Origin: Dictyostelium discoideum
Taxonomy: Eukaryota
NCBI GenBank assembly: GCA_000004695.1
Contig: CM000155.2
Coordinates: forward strand, 3,392,001-3,456,000
DNA: 64,000 nt
Direction: 5' to 3'
A program made the translations under genes and the position numbers. The notes under the pieces are model-generated. The model was not told the DNA's origin. It did not search any database and saw only the letters and a program-made list of their open reading frames with translations. Positions 240-56,635 of the stretch are shown here, piece by piece; positions within the stretch are counted from its first letter, which is position 1; every line of letters begins with the position of its first letter.

Positions 240-656
240 TTAATTTTTTGGTAATAAAAGTTCTAACCTTTTAGTTATTGGAATTAATAATTCATTATCA
301 ATATTATTTGCCAAAAGATTAATAGTGAATAGTGTATGATTTTTAATTAAATTATCCACAATACTCTTTGCACCAACTGAACTAATCTTATTATTATATA
401 ATGATAATCTCGATAAAATATTATTAAAAGGAAACACTTGATTAGCAATTGATGTTGCACCAATATCACCAATTGAATTACAAGATAAATCTAAATTTGT
501 TATAGTTTTATTTGACTTCAATGCAAAAGAAATCTCTTTTGCACCAATTGCACCAATTGAATTATATGATAAATCAATAAATTCAATCACATTATTCTCT
601 TTAATTAATTTTACTAATGATAATACACCATCACTTACAACTATATTTTTATCATC

Positions 657-696
<40 letters not shown>

Positions 697-2277
697 GGTG
701 GTGGTGAAGCTTCTTTTGGATTTGTTGTTGTTGTTGTTGTTGATTGAATATGTGAAGATTCAATAGAAGTTATTAATGATTGTGATAATGAAATTGATTT
801 AATTGTTTTATTTTTAATTAATTGATTTGCAAGTACTGAAACACCATAATTACCAAGGGAATTACTTGATAGATCTAATTGAGTTAAATTTATATTATCA
901 TTTATTAAACTAAATGATTTTGCTAATTTAATAGCACCTAATGCTTCTAAATTATTACTAAATAAATTTAAATATTTTATATTTGAATTCTTTAAAAATG
1001 AACCAATATATTTCGCACCTCTATGACAAATTGTATTACAAGAGAAATCAATTGATGTAATTGGTGATACACAATTAGAAGAAGAGGATGATGATGATGA
1101 TGATGATGAGGATGATGATAAAACTTCAAATGATTTTGATAATTGAATTATTCCATTTGAATTTATCCAATTAATTGATAAATCCAATTGTGTCAATGTT
1201 TTATTATTAATTATAATATCAGAGAAAGAAGAAGCACCACTATCTTCAATACAATTACTACTTAAATTCAATGTAGTAATCATTGTATTCTCATTGTATG
1301 CAATTGATTTCGATAATAATTTAGCACCTTGATCACCAATTCTATTACATGATAAATCAATATTTAAAATTGACCTATTCAATGATAATCCAAATGCAAT
1401 ATATCCAACCGCTTGATTATCAATTAAATTTCTTGATAAATTTAATGATTTTAATGATTTATTCTTTCCTAATGAATTTTTAAATGTTAATCCAATTTTT
1501 GTTATTGCTGTCGTTATTGTTGATTGTGAAATTTCTGTTGGTGTTGCTGTTGGTATTATTATTATTGATGAAGATTCTGGTGATGATGATTCTGGTGATG
1601 ATGATGAAGAAGTAGATGATGATGATGATGGTGATAATGAAAGTTTACAATTTGATAAATTTAAATCAGTTAATGATTGATTAAGTGAAATCATTTCAGC
1701 AAATGCTAAAGTACCTTCTTGAAATAATGAATTACAACTATACTGTAATGATGTTATTGAATTATTAATTGATAATGCTTTTGCAATTGCAACTGAACCA
1801 AATTGTTTAATATCATTAAATGATAAATTCAATGACTGAATAGATTTATTACTTGATAAACCATCAGCTAGTATAATTGCAGATTCATTAGATAATTGAT
1901 TATATGATAAATCCAATGACGATAATGAAAGAGGTGTAATTGTTTTAAGTATATTTGAAAATTTAGATAATCCCACAAATCCATTACTAGTCGACTCTTT
2001 ACCACCAATTTTACAACGACCTAAATCCAATGACCAAAGTATCGATTTATTGCCACTCATAATATCATTGATTATACCAATGGTGGAATTCGATGTCATC
2101 AATTTTATTGTTAACTTTATTTTAAAATATTCTGGTAAATTAACTAACGACTTTAATTGATTCAATAATCCTAAATCAATTTGGTTAAATGCTAATTCTA
2201 AATTTATTAAATTTGAATGATCTTTTAAATCATTTATAAATTCTTTTAAATTATTATTTCCATTATTTCCATTATTT

Positions 2278-2315
<38 letters not shown>

Positions 2316-2642
2316 TAAAAAATTACAATATAATATATTTAATTCAATTAAATTCTCTAAACTTTTAATTAATTTTGATAATTTTAATAAATTTAATTTA
2401 CATTGTTTTAATGATAATGTTGATGTTGATTTAAATGATGATAATATTTTTATTGGTAAATCTAGTATATCATTATTATTAAATTCTAAGAAATGTATTG
2501 TTTCTTTACAATATTTATTCCACTTTTTATCAATTAATGTTAATTGAAAATAATCTGCTGTTAATCTATTATTACTAATTAATGAAATAATCTTTTTAAT
2601 TATTATAACTGGTAATTTATTAATATTATCAACACTAATCAT
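240..2642 (-). CDS. Leucine-rich repeat protein (ribonuclease-inhibitor-type LRRs) with poly-N/S/T low-complexity inserts
   Basis: 800-aa uninterrupted ORF. Repeated LxxLxLxxNxI / LDLSxNxIGxxGAxxL units (e.g. LNLSSNCIEDSGASSF, LDLSSNSLGNYGVSVL). Homopolymer N, S and T runs. Confidence 0.75.
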
Positions 2643-4259: not shown

Positions 4260-5009
4260 TTAATTTGTTGTATTTGTATCAGGAGTTGTAATTGTTGTTT
4301 TTGATTGATCTATTAATTCTGGGAAAATATTGACAAATTCGTGAATTTCATCTATACAATAATCGACATGAGGATCATTTGAAGTAGCACCAACCAAAAC
4401 AGTGTACATACCAGCTTTTTTTGCTTCTACTAAATTCTCTACAACATCATCGAAAAACACACAACCAGATGCATCGGTAGTGTCAGCTTTTTTCATTGCC
4501 ATTTGGTAGGCGACTGGATGAGGTTTTGAAAAGTCCATCATTTCTAAATAATCTAACCAAGCATCGAAACAATCATCAATTTCCAATTCACGTGTAACAC
4601 GTTTACAATGACCAATGTCGGCATTTGAAAAGATCACCTTTTTGACACCACTCTTTACACTCTTGAGACATGCATGTAATCGTGCATCTGGTTTTAAATG
4701 ACTCTTTAAATCTAATCCACCATGAACATAATCTAAATATTTGTCAATGTTTACTTCATGATTCATCATTAAACCTTTTAATGTGAGGCCATATGTTTTA
4801 TAATAATGATTTCTAACTTTATCTACCTCTTCCATTGGTAAATTCAATATGATTGACATATATTGAGTGATTCTATTACTAACTTGTGCTGCTAATCCAC
4901 ATGATTTTGGATATAATGTATTATCTAAATCAAATAATAATGTATGAATTTTACGTTCACCATTATTCTTTATTAAATTATCTGTTGAATTAATTTCTGC
5001 TACTGTCAT
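4260..5009 (-). CDS. HAD-superfamily hydrolase (SDT1/pyrimidine 5'-nucleotidase-like, subfamily IA)
   Basis: 249-aa ORF. N-terminal HAD motif I 'LLFDLDNTLY', and later 'VFFDD' motif IV-like. Single exon. Confidence 0.8.
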   Translation of the reverse strand: MTVAEINSTDNLIKNNGERKIHTLLFDLDNTLYPKSCGLAAQVSNRITQYMSIILNLPMEEVDKVRNHYYKTYGLTLKGLMMNHEVNIDKYLDYVHGGLDLKSHLKPDARLHACLKSVKSGVKKVIFSNADIGHCKRVTRELEIDDCFDAWLDYLEMMDFSKPHPVAYQMAMKKADTTDASGCVFFDDVVENLVEAKKAGMYTVLVGATSNDPHVDYCIDEIHEFVNIFPELIDQSKTTITTPDTNTTN

Positions 5010-6571: not shown

Positions 6572-8098
6572 ATGAATTATTATCAAAATTTAAATGAAAA
6601 TAATCAATTTAAATATAAACCAAATTATAATTATAATAATAATAATAATAAATATATAAATAATAATTATAAAAATAATAATAATAATTTATTATTAAAA
6701 ATAATGAAAAAAATTAAAATTAAAATTTTAAATTTAATTGAATTTTTAAAATTTAATTTTAAAAAAACCAATTTTAAAATAATATTTAAACAAATTGGGA
6801 TTCAATTATTATTTATGTGTTTATTATTTGGAATTATTGCACCAATTTCAATTTTACTTTATAATAATTCACCATCAAAATATTTAGGTAATAAAATCCA
6901 ATTTTCAAGTGAAGATATTTATTCACCAATTGAAAATAATATTTCAATTTATGATAGAAAAGAATTTCCACAACAATGGTCACAAGTTAATATTTTATTA
7001 GACCCACATTCACATACAACTTATTCCGATGGAACATTAACACCTGAGGAGAATATAAAATGGCATATTTCCAATGGTTTCAATGCAATGTTTATGACCG
7101 ATCATAATAAAATCGAAGGTGGGTTAGAGGGACAGCGAATCGCCCAAAAGAAATACTCTTCAAAGATATTGGTGGTGCCAGGTATCGAATGGACAAATTG
7201 CAGATGTCATTTAAATTTAATTGGTATCAATGTGAATGTACCCTTAATTAAATTCCCAACAAATAAAGAAATTAAGGAAATAATTGATTTCGTTCATTCC
7301 CAAGGTGGGTTAGTTATATTGAATCATTATCCATGGAGTTACTGGGCAGGTTTAGACCAACCCTCAATGGAAGAATGGTATGAAATGGGCATTGACTTCC
7401 TCGAGGTTGTAAATATTGACACTATGGACTACCAAGGTATAGTATTTTGTAAAGACCATGACCTTCGTTATGTGACAGGTTCTGATTTCCATAGTAATCA
7501 ACATGCTTACTCTTGGACAGTTTTCAATATACCTCAATTACCACATGGTTCAATCCCAACTCAAGATCAATTAATTAAAACATTATTAGATAAATCAACT
7601 AAAACTTCATTTGCATTCGATTCACTTGCTAGTAAAACAGTTTCAGTTAAATCAAATAAATTAACACTTAATCCAACCTTCATTTTCTTATCACCTTGGA
7701 TTTATATAGGTGGTTTCTTTCATAGTTTTTTCGAATTAAAAAAAGGAATGTATAGTTTTGTAGATGGTAGTTGTACTGAACAAATTGTTGATATTCATAC
7801 CAATGAATTAGTTTCATTAGTAGCTTGGATTTTCTTTATTTTTATAATTGCCCAATTATTATATTTCACTTTAATTTTCACTTTAAATTATTTAAAATCA
7901 AAATTTAAAAATAAATCAAAAGAATCAACAACAATAAATAAAGAAGATTTTGAAAAAGAAAAAGAAACTGAAATAGAAAATGAAAAACAATCATCAATTA
8001 ATTTAGATGACAATTGTGACAATTGTGAAAGTAGTGGTAGCAGTAGTAATTCTTCTGATATTATATCAGATAATAGTTCAATAAGTAGTAACGATTAA
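6572..8098 (+). CDS. PHP-domain phosphoesterase (TrpH/YciV, COG0613-like) with predicted transmembrane segments
   Basis: PHP motif I 'LLDPHSHTTYSDGTLTPEE' and motif II 'AMFMTDHNKIEGG'. Hydrophobic helices (LLFMCLLFGIIAPISILLY; VSLVAWIFFIFIIAQLLYFTLIF). N-terminal poly-N. Confidence 0.7.
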   Translation: MNYYQNLNENNQFKYKPNYNYNNNNNKYINNNYKNNNNNLLLKIMKKIKIKILNLIEFLKFNFKKTNFKIIFKQIGIQLLFMCLLFGIIAPISILLYNNSPSKYLGNKIQFSSEDIYSPIENNISIYDRKEFPQQWSQVNILLDPHSHTTYSDGTLTPEENIKWHISNGFNAMFMTDHNKIEGGLEGQRIAQKKYSSKILVVPGIEWTNCRCHLNLIGINVNVPLIKFPTNKEIKEIIDFVHSQGGLVILNHYPWSYWAGLDQPSMEEWYEMGIDFLEVVNIDTMDYQGIVFCKDHDLRYVTGSDFHSNQHAYSWTVFNIPQLPHGSIPTQDQLIKTLLDKSTKTSFAFDSLASKTVSVKSNKLTLNPTFIFLSPWIYIGGFFHSFFELKKGMYSFVDGSCTEQIVDIHTNELVSLVAWIFFIFIIAQLLYFTLIFTLNYLKSKFKNKSKESTTINKEDFEKEKETEIENEKQSSINLDDNCDNCESSGSSSNSSDIISDNSSISSND

Positions 8099-15224: not shown

Positions 15225-15306
15225 TGTAAGCTAAGGGATTCGAACCCTTGTATCAATGATATTGCAGCCTTAATGCAACCCCTTAGACCAGCTCGGGCAA
15301 GCTTAC
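15225..15306 (-). tRNA. tRNA-Leu (anticodon AAG), class II with long variable arm
   Basis: The minus strand reads GTAAGCTTGCCCGAGCTGGTCTAAGGGGTTGCATTAAGGCTGCAATATCATTGATACAAGGGTTCGAATCCCTTAGCTTACA. Acceptor GTAAGCT/AGCTTAC, anticodon loop TTAAGGC, T-arm AAGGG-TTCGAAT-CCCTT. It closely parallels eukaryotic tRNA-Leu-AAG. Confidence 0.85.
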
Positions 15307-15769: not shown

Positions 15770-16894
15770 TTAGTTTTGATTTTTTTCAATGTAATCAATG
15801 ACAGCGCCAGTGAATTGTTTAGTTGAAGATTTACCACCGATATCAGAAGTTAAGGTACCTTCTTTAATGACGGCTTTAACGGCATTTTCAACTTTGGTAG
15901 CATGTTCATTTAAGCCTAAATGTTTTAACATCATAACAGAGGCTAATAATAAACCGGTTGGATTTGCTTTATCTTTACCGGCGATATCAGCAGCGACGTG
16001 ATGAGCACCCATTTCGAAAATAATACTTCCCTCACCAACATTTGCACCACCAGCCAAACCTGGACCACCAACTAAAGCAGCACCAATATTTGAGACAATA
16101 TTACCATATAAGTTTGGAGTGACCATAACATCGTATTGTTCTGGTGATTTAACCAATTGCATACAACAATTATCAATGATGGTGTTTTCAAATTTAATTT
16201 CTGGATACTCTTTGGCGATTTGAGTGCAAGTTGCAAGGAAGAGACCATCGGTTTGTTTTTGAATGTTTGCTTTGTGAACGGCTGTTACCTTCTTTCTACC
16301 GTTTGCTTTGGCATATTCGAATGCGTAACGAGCAATACGTTCTGATGCTTCTTTGGTTATGATTTTAAGTGATTGGACTACACCTGGTGTCAATACTTGT
16401 TCGAGACCACTGTACTCACCTTGGGTGTTCTCTCTAATGACAACAAAATCAACTAAAACATCGTCGTGACGTGCGGTGATACCTGGAATTTGTTTGCATG
16501 GTACAACGTGAGCATATAAATCTAATGCTTTTCTAAGTTCCATATTTCTTGATTGAGATCCTGATAAAATCTCAGTGTAAAGTGGTCCCTTTAATGCAAC
16601 TTTATTTCTAGTAATTGATGCAATCAATTCTTGTGAAATTGGTTGTCCACCACTAATATCGAAAATTTCCCATTCAATTGGTACTTTGGCTGCTTGGAAT
16701 ACACCCATAACTGATGATGTAATCTCTGGACCAATACCATCACCTGGAATAACTGTAACTGTTTTTTTTTGAACTCCTGATGTATATCCAAGATAATTTC
16801 TAATTGACTAAAAATAAATAAATTTAATAATTATTTTAATTTTTAATTAGTATATATAAAAACATTTAATAAAATAATAATAATAATTAAAAAA

Positions 16895-38564: not shown

Positions 38565-38646
38565 CCGGCTTTGGCGCAATGGTAGCGCGATTGACTGTAG
38601 TTTTGTAGTAATCAATCGGTTGCTAGTTCGAATCTGGCAAGCCGGA
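38565..38646 (+). tRNA. tRNA-Tyr (anticodon GTA) with ~10-nt intron (38601..38610)
   Basis: CCGGCTT-TG-GCGC-AATGGTA-GCGC-G-ATTGA-CTGTAG[ttttgtagta]A-TCAAT-CGGTT-GCTAG-TTCGAAT-CTGGC-AAGCCGG-A, followed by CTTTTT. C1-G72 start and intron 3' of the anticodon as in other eukaryotic tRNA-Tyr genes. Confidence 0.85.
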
Positions 38647-38736
38647 CTTTTTAATATTTAGTTTTGTTTATATTTAGTTTTGTAACACCGCTTTTAGGTA
38701 AAAAAAAAAAAAAAAAAAAAAATATTTAGTTTTGTT

Positions 38737-39953: not shown

Positions 39954-40036
39954 TGCAAGAGGCGAGATTCGAACTCGCGAACCGAATGGATGAGATCTTA
40001 AGTCACACGGATTTAACCAGACTTTCCTACCCTTGC
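39954..40036 (-). tRNA. tRNA-Leu (anticodon TAA), copy 1
   Basis: The minus strand reads GCAAGGGTAGGAAAGTCTGGTTAAATCCGTGTGACTTAAGATCTCATCCATTCGGTTCGCGAGTTCGAATCTCGCCTCTTGCA. Acceptor GCAAGGG/CTCTTGC (one G-T), anticodon loop CTTAAGA, T-arm GCGAG-TTCGAAT-CTCGC, long variable arm. Confidence 0.8.
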
Positions 40037-56552: not shown

Positions 56553-56635
56553 TGCAAGAGGCGAGATTCGAACTCGCGAACCGAATGGATGAGATCTTAA
56601 GTCACACGGATTTAACCAGACTTTCCTACCCTTGC
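56553..56635 (-). tRNA. tRNA-Leu (anticodon TAA), copy 2 (identical to copy 1)
   Basis: Same 83-nt sequence as 39954..40036. Confidence 0.8.

Follow-up and report, generated by a model that had tools for sequence, protein, structure and literature searches.

The PHP superfamily is itself well known, and the curated family to which the protein described below comes closest is CehA/McbA (NF038032), whose members are carbaryl hydrolases; the mature McbA enzyme is a ~72-kDa protein with extra domains and acts on a xenobiotic carbamate substrate. McbA reaches the periplasm via an N-terminal transmembrane (TM) plus signal region (PMC11302072). Two further bacterial PHP phosphoesterases of unknown function, BVU_3505 (3e38) and TM0559 (2anu), come from structural genomics, and a two-TM layout is not seen in their deposited chains. 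The TrpH/YciV proteins (RNase AM / 3',5'-nucleoside bisphosphate phosphatase; COG0613; 7ug9, 9etk, 2yb1) are soluble, cytoplasmic and devoid of TM segments, and their C-terminal half is of another kind, whereas the Dictyostelium discoideum protein DDB_G0293864 has its PHP domain flanked by two conserved TM helices. A search of the literature for DDB_G0293864, its paralogue or any connection between Asgard archaea and PHP proteins found no publication. The explanation that best accounts for the locus as a whole, to which we assign a probability of about 0.7, is that DDB_G0293864 would be an exoplasmic-facing two-pass PHP hydrolase of an old Amorphea family, and that an Asgard family of identical TM1-PHP-helix-TM2 layout would be its sister group.

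The DDB_G0293864 gene and its PHP core

The window that we analysed is a stretch of 64,000 nucleotides of D. discoideum DNA (contig CM000155.2, positions 3,392,001 to 3,456,000). One ORF in it matched the annotated D. discoideum DDB_G0293864 protein with 100% identity and 100% coverage; this protein already carries an annotation as a hypothetical 'Polymerase/histidinol phosphatase-like' protein. It combines an intact PHP domain with an N-rich tail and two strongly hydrophobic segments, and has the following features in window coordinates:

6572..8098, + strand: complete single-exon CDS of DDB_G0293864, 508 aa plus stop (ORF listing)
6572..6799, + strand: N-terminal tail, aa 1-76, predicted cytoplasmic, N-rich low complexity and then K-rich (sequence)
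6800..6862, + strand: TM1, aa 77-97, predicted transmembrane helix of signal-anchor type (Kyte-Doolittle mean 2.55)
6863..6946, + strand: juxtamembrane linker with two N-x-S/T sequons (N98-N-S and N123-I-S), just 5' of strand beta-1
6986..7621, + strand: PHP catalytic core, aa ~139-350 (Pfam, NCBIfam, fold matches and ligand conservation)
7196..7210, + strand: N-C-R-C-H motif, aa 209-213, with C210 eukaryote-specific, R211 shared with Asgard proteins and H213 a metal ligand
7673..7732, + strand: conserved hydrophobic/amphipathic helix PTFIFLSPWIYIGGFFHSFF, aa 368-387, with conserved P375/G380
7739..7774, + strand: eukaryote-specific insert KKGMYSFVDGSC, aa 390-401, ending in C401 (alignment columns, hhalign gap)
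7808..7885, + strand: TM2, aa 413-438 (Kyte-Doolittle mean 2.49)
7886..8095, + strand: C-terminal tail, aa 439-508, predicted cytoplasmic, K-rich and then acidic/S-rich low complexity

The presence at 6572-8098 of a PHP phosphoesterase-type ORF with an N-rich N-terminus and TM segments, as proposed in a sequence-only reading of the window, was thereby confirmed, and its placing of a metal-dependent hydrolase of the PHP superfamily between TM segments is supported by the Pfam match, the ligands, the fold and TM1/TM2. Among orthologues, the tail at aa 1-76 was variable and unalignable, and for aa 439-508 no alignment between orthologues was possible.

The Dictyostelium genome contains two paralogues of this TM-PHP-TM family, DDB_G0293864 and DDB_G0288779. 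We found that the synteny of DDB_G0293864 with its HAD and Sel1 neighbours is kept in D. citrinum, and on this basis the gene has been inherited vertically within Dictyostelium. Foreign DNA and gene conversion with the paralogue were considered as sources of a GC3-rich patch in the gene; both were rejected because the D. citrinum orthologue has a weaker form of the patch, the paralogue has none and synonymous divergence there is not reduced.

Assignment within the superfamily was based on curated profiles and known structures. The Pfam profile PF02811 matched only aa 145-208 with 28.4 bits (cutoff 26.4), a marginal score for a single sequence, and precomputed PF02811 matches are also present on many orthologues. 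The best-scoring curated family, NF038032, fell just short of its cutoff of 80 with 77.8 bits (E 9.3e-22, aa 144-312), and we therefore treat DDB_G0293864 as a relative of the CehA/McbA family rather than as a demonstrated member. The RNase RNM/TrpH equivalog NF047791 (51.7 bits, cutoff 375) and NF041577 (48.5 bits, cutoff 400) both missed their thresholds, and the RNase AM structures 7ug9 and 9etk aligned significantly only over aa ~141-223, the N-terminal ~85 residues of the core. BVU_3505 and TM0559 match in fold but share low sequence similarity with DDB_G0293864 (47-58 bits) and lack both R211 and the C-terminal helix/TM2 module. The protein is thus closer to the CehA/McbA, TM0559 and BVU_3505 branch than to TrpH/YciV, to which the sequence-only reading had likened it.

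The full trinuclear-metal ligand set of PHP enzymes (HxH, D, H, E, H, H, DxH) is complete in DDB_G0293864, and its fold corresponds to the distorted (beta/alpha)7-barrel. Specifically, the nine ligands are H146, H148, D153, H178, E206, H213, H242/H252, D305 and H307, with roles assigned by homology to known PHP enzymes, and all nine were near-invariant in an alignment of 131 sequences (45 eukaryotic, 78 Asgard and 8 outgroup). The PHP domain is therefore predicted to be catalytically intact. In addition, DDB_G0293864 carries both family-specific residues of the core, R211 (41/45 eukaryotic and 76/78 Asgard sequences) and N251 (44/45 and 71/78, respectively), which are largely absent from the outgroups (n=8).

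Relatives in Amorphea and Asgard archaea

A word-index search with the single protein returned mainly low-complexity candidates, its prokaryotic matches being only weak bacterial ones, and profiles of the trimmed core were therefore used. Eukaryotic members were found in Amoebozoa (Dictyostelia, Physarum, Ceratiomyxa and Mastigamoeba), in Thecamonas (Apusomonadida), in the ichthyosporean Chromosphaera and in Fungi (Mucoromycota, Glomeromycota, Kickxellomycotina, Chytridiomycota, Blastocladiomycota and two Ascomycota). All ~55 taxonomically identified eukaryotic members belong to Amorphea, their architecture is the same throughout, and the branching inside the eukaryotic clade roughly tracks the organismal groups; roughly half of the eukaryote-type representatives come from metagenomes without a name, and their assignment relies only on motifs and on their place in the tree. 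DDB_G0293864 thus belongs to an uncharacterised old eukaryotic PHP family that is vertically inherited and patchily distributed across Amorphea. The sequence-only reading had taken such proteins to be rare in eukaryotes and the gene to be a candidate horizontal acquisition, and had named two checks: the orthologues that it suggested looking for in other amoebozoa are present in Dictyostelia, Myxogastria and Archamoebae, and the phylogeny of the PHP domain places the gene within a broad eukaryotic clade, the outcome that it had listed as counting against acquisition.

When 1.84 billion representatives were searched exhaustively with a profile, 163 matches lay below 1e-30, which fell into two groups, one eukaryote-type and one of ~350-aa proteins, with matches spanning profile positions ~5-370 in both. 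The named members of the ~350-aa group are Sigyn-, Heimdall-, Loki-, Hod- and Hermodarchaeota, and a Thor-labelled MAG also carries a member. In a scan of GTDB genomes, 75 of 79 loci had Asgard or uncultured-archaeon labels, but the patterns used came from 8 sequences and were biased toward the Asgard group, so that the unbiased evidence consists of the exhaustive search and a comparison of the scores of named members. Scores ranged from 177 to 454 bits within the family against at most 112 bits for generic bacterial PHP proteins; bacterial proteins named CehA/McbA reached ~78 bits with the Asgard-type profile, and the best named bacterial match to a combined eukaryote+Asgard profile had 64 bits. 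The name search with this combined profile served only for eukaryote names, the Asgard query members not being returned by it. Two closed genomes contain full TM1/TM2 copies, making it very unlikely that the Asgard copies are assembly contaminants.

We found that the long Asgard form resembles the eukaryotic proteins along its whole length. Examples are those of Ca. Heimdallarchaeum endolithica (CP084167) and Ca. H. aukensis (CP084166), which are the two closed genomes, a Heimdallarchaeota protein (MEE9410140.1) and a Sigynarchaeota protein (MDO8112228.1), and NCBI names this form 'PHP domain-containing protein / CehA/McbA family metallohydrolase'. Alignment of the eukaryotic with the Asgard profile by hhalign extended from TM1 to TM2 (probability 100, E = 3.6e-87, 330 columns). 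Both forms have TM1, an N-x-S/T linker, the PHP core, an amphipathic helix, TM2 and a K/R-rich tail, and share all metal ligands, R211, N251 and the positive-inside pattern. However, pairwise identity is only ~30-37%, and the Asgard long form (~340-380 aa) lacks the low-complexity tails, the KGMYSF..C insert and C210. C210 was present in 43/45 eukaryotic, 0/78 Asgard and 0/8 outgroup sequences; the insert residues G392/Y394/C401 occurred in 34-42 of the 45 eukaryotic sequences, the columns being gaps in all Asgard and outgroup sequences, and the insert was the sole gap in the hhalign alignment. Both eukaryotic markers, C210 (CRxH) and the G-M-Y-S-F...C401 insert, are carried by DDB_G0293864 and occur in 42-43 of the 45 eukaryotic sequences, and C401 is a candidate disulfide partner of C210. 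Asgard genomes hold several paralogues each and two structural forms of the family, the second being a derived soluble form of ~260 aa without TM segments in Loki-, Hod-, Thor- and Hermod-type genomes.

Sporadic bacterial copies, for example in Christensenellales with DnaA/DnaN neighbours and in Halioglobus, were nested among the Asgard sequences. Mis-binning was rejected for the bacterial-labelled MAG contig L034, which has DnaA and DnaN as neighbours, and for contig L070, with GlpK, an aldehyde dehydrogenase and a sigma-54 regulator; such genuine bacterial contigs show that the family can move horizontally. No universally conserved neighbour gene was found in the 79 Asgard loci, where synteny exists only at the level of lineages, and the neighbourhoods thus give no functional clue. 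On these profile comparisons, the sole close relatives of the eukaryotic family are Asgard archaeal, plus the few nested bacterial copies, and the two groups together constitute an unnamed family, common to Asgard archaea and Amorphea, with an alignable TM1-PHP-helix-TM2 layout from end to end. Prokaryotic closest relatives outside eukaryotes, as the sequence-only reading had supposed, were therefore found, but its term 'bacterial-type' does not fit them, and its view that a PHP domain had been fused to TM segments and is now membrane-anchored gives way to an older anchoring: since the layout matches the Asgard long form column by column, the membrane anchors are ancestral and predate the eukaryotic family.

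Membrane topology

TM1 and TM2 of the eukaryotic profile align to TM1 and TM2 of the Asgard profile, and in an AlphaFold model of the trimmed protein, built on only 12 sequences, they correspond to helices 2-34 and 346-377, respectively. The helix at aa 368-387, also aligned to the Asgard profile, corresponds to helix 304-320 of the model and probably lies at the membrane interface. In 38 eukaryotic members, K+R residues averaged 3.18 on the N-side of TM1 versus 1.24 on its C-side, and the TM2 flanks had 3.92 on the C-side versus 1.03 on the N-side. This positive-inside bias was present in both the eukaryotic and Asgard groups, at both outer flanks in 74-98% of members. A sequon not more than 22 aa upstream of DxHxH was found in 33/42 eukaryotic proteins and 35/39 long Asgard forms, compared with 7/39 short soluble Asgard forms and 0/8 outgroups; likewise, sequon density per 100 aa was 0.99-1.19 in anchored forms versus 0.28 in soluble forms. 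Export has precedents among related proteins: McbA, from the nearest curated family, is periplasmic, and N-terminal signal- or TM-like segments are present in 22 of the 41 nearest outgroup proteins.

The charge bias and sequons suggest that the catalytic domain lies outside the cytoplasm in both lineages. DDB_G0293864 would accordingly cross the membrane twice, its N- and C-terminus both lying in the cytoplasm, and its large loop, a trinuclear-metal PHP hydrolase domain, would face the exoplasmic side, i.e. the secretory/endolysosomal lumen or the cell surface. The sequons also suggest that this loop is probably N-glycosylated, and in eukaryotes it would probably be braced by the C210-C401 disulfide. 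Its predicted activity is most likely hydrolysis of a phosphoester (or related ester) in an exoplasmic or membrane-embedded substrate. That the PHP domain is instead cytosolic, that the helix at aa 368-387 crosses the membrane as a third span, or that the protein is a pseudo-enzyme acting as receptor or scaffold seems to us quite improbable: this helix is moderately hydrophobic (Kyte-Doolittle mean ~1.3 by hand calculation), the topology is a prediction from the amino acid sequence, and the Pfam match barely exceeds its threshold, but a cytosolic domain is at odds with the charge bias and the sequon densities, the stretch that links this helix to TM2 is acidic and bears the invariant cysteine, and retention of nine metal ligands for more than 1 billion years argues against a pseudo-enzyme.

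Origin and meaning of the family

Three neighbor-joining (NJ) analyses used p-distances and BLOSUM score-distances with 2-20 outgroups, leaving out rogue taxa. Separation of a joint eukaryotic and Asgard group from the outgroups received 86-89% bootstrap. Eukaryote monophyly was not recovered in the NJ trees (4-7%), and the Asgard clan (73-77% in the outgroup-rooted trees) fell within an unresolved comb of eukaryotic sequences whose internodes measured 0.01-0.03. Eukaryotic sequences were equidistant from all Asgard subgroups, so that a specific sister relationship to Heimdall/Hod is unsupported. As NJ does not settle the deep order, the direction of descent rests on the rare insert and cysteine pair rather than on the tree.

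We prefer, tentatively and at somewhat less than even odds, the reading that the family was inherited from the Asgard-related host lineage earlier than the last amorphean ancestor and was lost elsewhere; with all identified eukaryotic members in Amorphea, this vertical descent requires that animals and all the other supergroups lost it. Alternatively, with protein and mechanism unchanged, the eukaryotic family might have arisen by a single ancient transfer from an Asgard archaeon to stem Amorphea, after the last eukaryotic common ancestor, which we regard as possible yet rather unlikely. The amorphean-only distribution, the mobility of the family and the equidistance of eukaryotes from the Asgard subgroups, rather than a place beside Heimdall/Hod, would be in keeping with such a transfer, but the search of non-amorphean eukaryotes by name was not exhaustive, several divergent eukaryote-type representatives carry no identity, and the position of the eukaryotic root is debated, so that the distribution is also compatible with presence in the last eukaryotic common ancestor. 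The reverse course, in which an early eukaryote (stem Amorphea) was the source of the family, which then passed to an Asgard archaeon and spread to other Asgard archaea and a few bacteria, appears improbable. It would explain the position of the Asgard clan within the eukaryotic comb and the larger pairwise diversity of eukaryotic (0.93) than of Asgard (0.47-0.76) sequences; however, the short backbone internodes are unsupported, the family occupies at least five named Asgard lineages in two structural forms with several paralogues in a genome, exported PHP proteins of prokaryotes are the nearest outgroups, and absence of the insert and C210 from every Asgard and outgroup sequence indicates that the Asgard clade did not come from crown Amorphea, barring precise reversal. 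We give hardly any weight to a horizontal move of a bacterial TrpH/YciV-type gene into the Dictyostelium or amoebozoan lineage with later fusion to TM segments. The PHP superfamily is mostly prokaryotic, the HxH..D region aligns to RNase AM structures and JGI pipelines call some relatives 'predicted metal-dependent phosphoesterase TrpH', but against this stand the TrpH equivalog score far below its cutoff, a family extending over Amoebozoa, Apusomonadida, Fungi and Ichthyosporea, nearest prokaryotic relatives in Asgard archaea that already have both TM segments, the much greater distance of generic bacterial PHP proteins, and the native synteny and composition of DDB_G0293864.

The conservation of this family across Amorphea, the Asgard proteins as its only close relatives, and the two-TM architecture common to both groups, which is predicted to expose the catalytic domain outside the cytoplasm, appear to be undescribed. 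Reconstructions of eukaryogenesis draw on protein families that only Asgard archaea and eukaryotes possess, few of which are membrane-associated or exoplasmic. A hitherto unrecognised family of N-glycosylated two-pass ecto-phosphoesterases found essentially only in these two groups, inherited from the archaeal host, kept in Amorphea and lost elsewhere, is a doubtful but conceivable case; if true, it would be part of an exoplasmic/lumenal phosphoester metabolism older than the eukaryotic endomembrane system, conceivably in the recycling of phosphorylated lipid carriers or in scavenging nucleotides on the outer face of the membrane; such a role would be open to genetic study in Dictyostelium. 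With two paralogues and good genetics in this organism, the function of the whole family, including its uncultured Asgard members, would be testable.

The DDB_G0293864 reading frame and its surroundings

The window, which is extremely AT-rich, contains a reading frame whose product is identical over its full length (100%) to the hypothetical protein DDB_G0293864 of Dictyostelium discoideum AX4.

Features in the window
240-2642, minus strand: ORF of 800 aa, leucine-rich-repeat-like protein (translation read by eye)
4260-5009, minus strand: ORF, HAD-type hydrolase (precomputed Pfam on the D. citrinum orthologue)
6572-8098, plus strand: DDB_G0293864, ATG at 6572 to TAA at 8096-8098, uninterrupted, 508 aa
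10442-12088, minus strand: ORF, Sel1-repeat-like protein (precomputed Pfam on the D. citrinum orthologue)
15225-15306, minus strand: tRNA-Leu(AAG)
15770-16708, minus strand: ORF, apparent NAD-isocitrate dehydrogenase subunit (translation read by eye)
38565-38647, plus strand: tRNA-Tyr(GUA)
39954-40036 and 56553-56635, minus strand: a pair of tRNA-Leu(UAA) genes, equally long and about 16.6 kb apart, bringing the tRNA genes to four

The PHP motifs DPHSHTTYSDG (aa 144-154) and MTDHN (aa 175-179), the tail rich in N and a pair of strongly hydrophobic segments (aa 79-97 and 420-438, Kyte-Doolittle means of about 2.5) were all confirmed, and the sequence-only reading was thus correct in describing a PHP domain with transmembrane (TM) segments; the Pfam PHP model PF02811 matched at 28.4 bits (cutoff 26.4). 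Assignment to the TrpH/YciV subfamily, however, was not borne out: the equivalogs RNase RNM (51.7 bits) and pAp phosphatase (48.5 bits) fell far short of their cutoffs of 375 and 400, and the NCBIfam model that scored best, at 77.8 bits (E 9.3e-22) against a cutoff of 80, was the CehA/McbA metallohydrolase domain.

Codons ~151-300 (window 7020-7470) had a GC3 of 0.34-0.40, with 0.04-0.16 in the remaining codons; the same region showed a weaker increase (0.15-0.28) in the D. citrinum orthologue and almost none in the paralogue DDB_G0288779. A drop in synonymous divergence at this patch was looked for and not seen. Foreign DNA or recent gene conversion was rejected, since D. citrinum shares the patch weakly, the paralogue lacks it and synonymous divergence is not reduced; most likely, the patch results from biased codon use in a core under constraint, as against AT-drifted low-complexity tails.

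The paralogue, 66% identical, lies on another chromosome (locus L080 3001-4482, CM142511.1) next to the gene for CAP (adenylyl cyclase-associated protein). The D. purpureum copies (proteins P0006/P0009) bear consecutive numbers, DICPUDRAFT_74920 and 74921, and share one 156,840-bp contig. Two older paralogue clades are both represented in Acytostelium, in Tieghemostelium and in P. violaceum.

Relatives in Amorphea and in Asgard archaea

Name-bearing searches and cluster look-ups identified orthologues of the same architecture across Amorphea: in all major groups of Dictyostelia (Dictyostelium, Polysphondylium, Tieghemostelium, Acytostelium, Cavenderia and Synstelium, often with two paralogues), Physarum and Ceratiomyxa, the archamoeba Mastigamoeba balamuthi, the apusomonad Thecamonas trahens, Mucoromycota (Umbelopsis, Mortierella, Podila, Calcarisporiella, Mycotypha), Glomeromycota (Diversispora), Kickxellomycotina (Coemansia, Kickxella, Smittium), Chytridiomycota (Gorgonomyces), Blastocladiomycota (Sorochytrium), two Ascomycota (Saitoella, Trichomonascus) and the ichthyosporean Chromosphaera perkinsii. 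These searches found no member in animals, plants or any other non-amorphean group. Among eukaryotes, the distance trees tracked organismal groups, with Dictyostelia joining Myxogastria, Chromosphaera joining fungi, chytrids basal among fungi, and Thecamonas and Mastigamoeba apart; in addition, the D. citrinum orthologue is flanked, as in the window and in the same order, by HAD-hydrolase and Sel1-repeat genes. The gene nests within a broadly conserved eukaryotic clade, the outcome that the sequence-only reading had named as refuting its candidate horizontal acquisition. The gene is native, and the PHP family to which it belongs extends across Amorphea and is without description in the searched literature.

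The only close relatives of this family are Asgard-archaeal proteins of the same membrane-anchored, apparently exoplasmic architecture. An exhaustive HMMER search of 1.84 billion cluster representatives with a trimmed eukaryotic profile gave 163 proteins below 1e-30, forming two classes, one with the eukaryotic markers CRxH and GMYSF and the other of ~345-370 aa with DQHSH-type motifs and hydrophobic segments at both ends, members of which belonged, by exact look-up, to Candidatus Sigynarchaeota and Heimdallarchaeota. A genome scan (one per GTDB species) found 79 loci, 75 of them labelled Heimdall-, Hod-, Thor-, Sigyn- or Promethearchaeota or 'uncultured archaeon', including loci on two closed chromosomes, those of Ca. 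Heimdallarchaeum endolithica and Ca. H. aukensis. In the copies from these two genomes, TM1 spans aa 8-26 and TM2 aa 316-334, and the C-terminus is rich in K/R. Because the scan patterns, derived from the Asgard-type group, were biased toward Asgard, two unbiased checks were used. The exhaustive search revealed no other group at comparable scores, and when the Asgard-type profile was searched against named sequences, the scores dropped abruptly: family members, among them a glomeromycete at 198 bits, scored 454-177 bits, and generic PHP proteins, including a CehA/McbA protein of Caldicoprobacter, at most 112 bits. All prokaryotes named at family scores were Asgard (Loki, Sigyn, Heimdall, Hod, Hermod, 'Asgard group'), which speaks against the bacterial affinity first proposed.

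Comparison of the eukaryotic and Asgard profiles (probability 100, E 3.6e-87) aligned 330 columns continuously through TM1, core, amphipathic helix and TM2, the sole gap being the eukaryote-specific KGMYSF..C insert. Residues R211 and N251 are common to both groups and largely absent from outgroups. The Asgard genes occur in two forms, one long and anchored, the other a soluble protein of ~260 aa without either TM segment.

Several Asgard MAGs carry two or three copies on separate contigs, and two Heimdallarchaeota MAGs, L004 (ORFs at 187 and 3483) and L005 (187 and 2191), have two members ~2-3 kb apart on the same strand. The short form is repeatedly flanked by two conserved genes (loci L039, L048, L054, L056, L058, L060, L061, L063, L064, L066, L068, L071, L073 and L076); by eye, their products resemble the two subunits of a B12-dependent aminomutase, and the synteny may reflect only close kinship of these genomes.

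The other four of the 79 loci had different labels. Full-length TM-PHP-TM members were seen on non-Asgard contigs at L034, L031, L070 and L043, the last a Thermoplasmatota MAG (405-kb contig). At L034 (Christensenellales MAG, JBNRMV010000007.1) the gene adjoins DnaA, DnaN and transketolase subunits, and at L070 (Halioglobus MAG) its neighbours are GlpK, aldehyde dehydrogenase and a sigma-54 regulator. These two contigs are therefore genuinely bacterial, and a few bacterial members are thus nested among Asgard ones, which implies that the gene has at times moved horizontally, either from Asgard archaea or into them.

Predicted membrane topology

Among anchored forms (38 eukaryotic, 44 Asgard), K+R counts averaged 3.2 and 3.9, respectively, in the N-flank of TM1 and 1.2 and 1.4 in its C-flank, 3.9 and 5.1 in the C-flank of TM2 and 1.0 and 1.1 in its N-flank, the inner flanks being acidic. 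By the positive-inside rule, this bias would place both termini in the cytoplasm and the PHP domain on the exoplasmic side. The 22 residues preceding the catalytic DxHxH include an N-x-S/T sequon in 33/42 eukaryotic proteins and in 35/39 Asgard proteins of the long form, but in only 7/39 short soluble Asgard proteins and in 0/8 outgroups; sequons per 100 aa numbered 0.99 and 1.19 in the anchored forms versus 0.28 in the soluble form, and DDB_G0293864 has loop sequons at N98-N-S and N123-I-S. C210, beside ligand H213, and C401, within the insert, occur in 43 and 42, respectively, of 45 eukaryotic sequences and in no Asgard or outgroup sequence, a distribution expected for a putative lumenal disulfide.

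CehA/McbA, the nearest curated family, offers a precedent for extracytoplasmic action in the carbaryl hydrolase McbA, which is periplasmic through an N-terminal TM plus signal region (PMC11302072). An N-terminal segment resembling a signal or TM helix is present in 22/41 of the nearest outgroup proteins, and the C-terminus is hydrophobic in about half of P0289-P0333 (~400-490 aa, mostly metagenomic), suggesting that export or anchoring may predate the Asgard-eukaryote family within this PHP branch.

Origin and predicted function

In bootstrapped NJ trees (215 core columns), the eukaryotic and Asgard sequences together stood apart from generic PHP proteins (86-89%), and the Asgard sequences formed a single clan (73-77%). 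The trees give no direction of descent, since the eukaryotic lineages formed a comb (internodes 0.01-0.03), were monophyletic in just 4-7% of replicates, and no Asgard subgroup was nearer to them (mean distances 0.98-1.14 across subgroups). The insert and cysteine pair, present in all eukaryotic lineages and in no Asgard or outgroup sequence, argue that the eukaryotic members are monophyletic and that their split from Asgard would be older than the last common ancestor of Amorphea.

We favour inheritance from an Asgard-related host lineage and subsequent losses, at a probability of about 0.4. Ancient transfer from Asgard archaea to stem-Amorphea appears somewhat unlikely, transfer from a eukaryote to Asgard archaea is improbable, and other origins take up the remainder. 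An origin in which Amoebozoa received a bacterial gene that was then fused to TM segments is effectively excluded; the Asgard relatives already align from TM1 to TM2.

PHP trinuclear-metal hydrolases, the chemistry predicted here, are most often phosphomono- or diesterases. Two anchors and an interfacial helix would keep the enzyme near the exoplasmic membrane face. No conserved partner gene was found in the Asgard neighbourhoods. Speculatively, a parallel with RNase AM and pAp phosphatases would make extracellular or lumenal nucleotides and 5'-phosphorylated oligonucleotides candidate substrates, and a parallel with CehA/McbA would suggest esters or carbamates; phosphorylated lipid carriers or lipid head groups are further candidates, because the active site would lie near the membrane.
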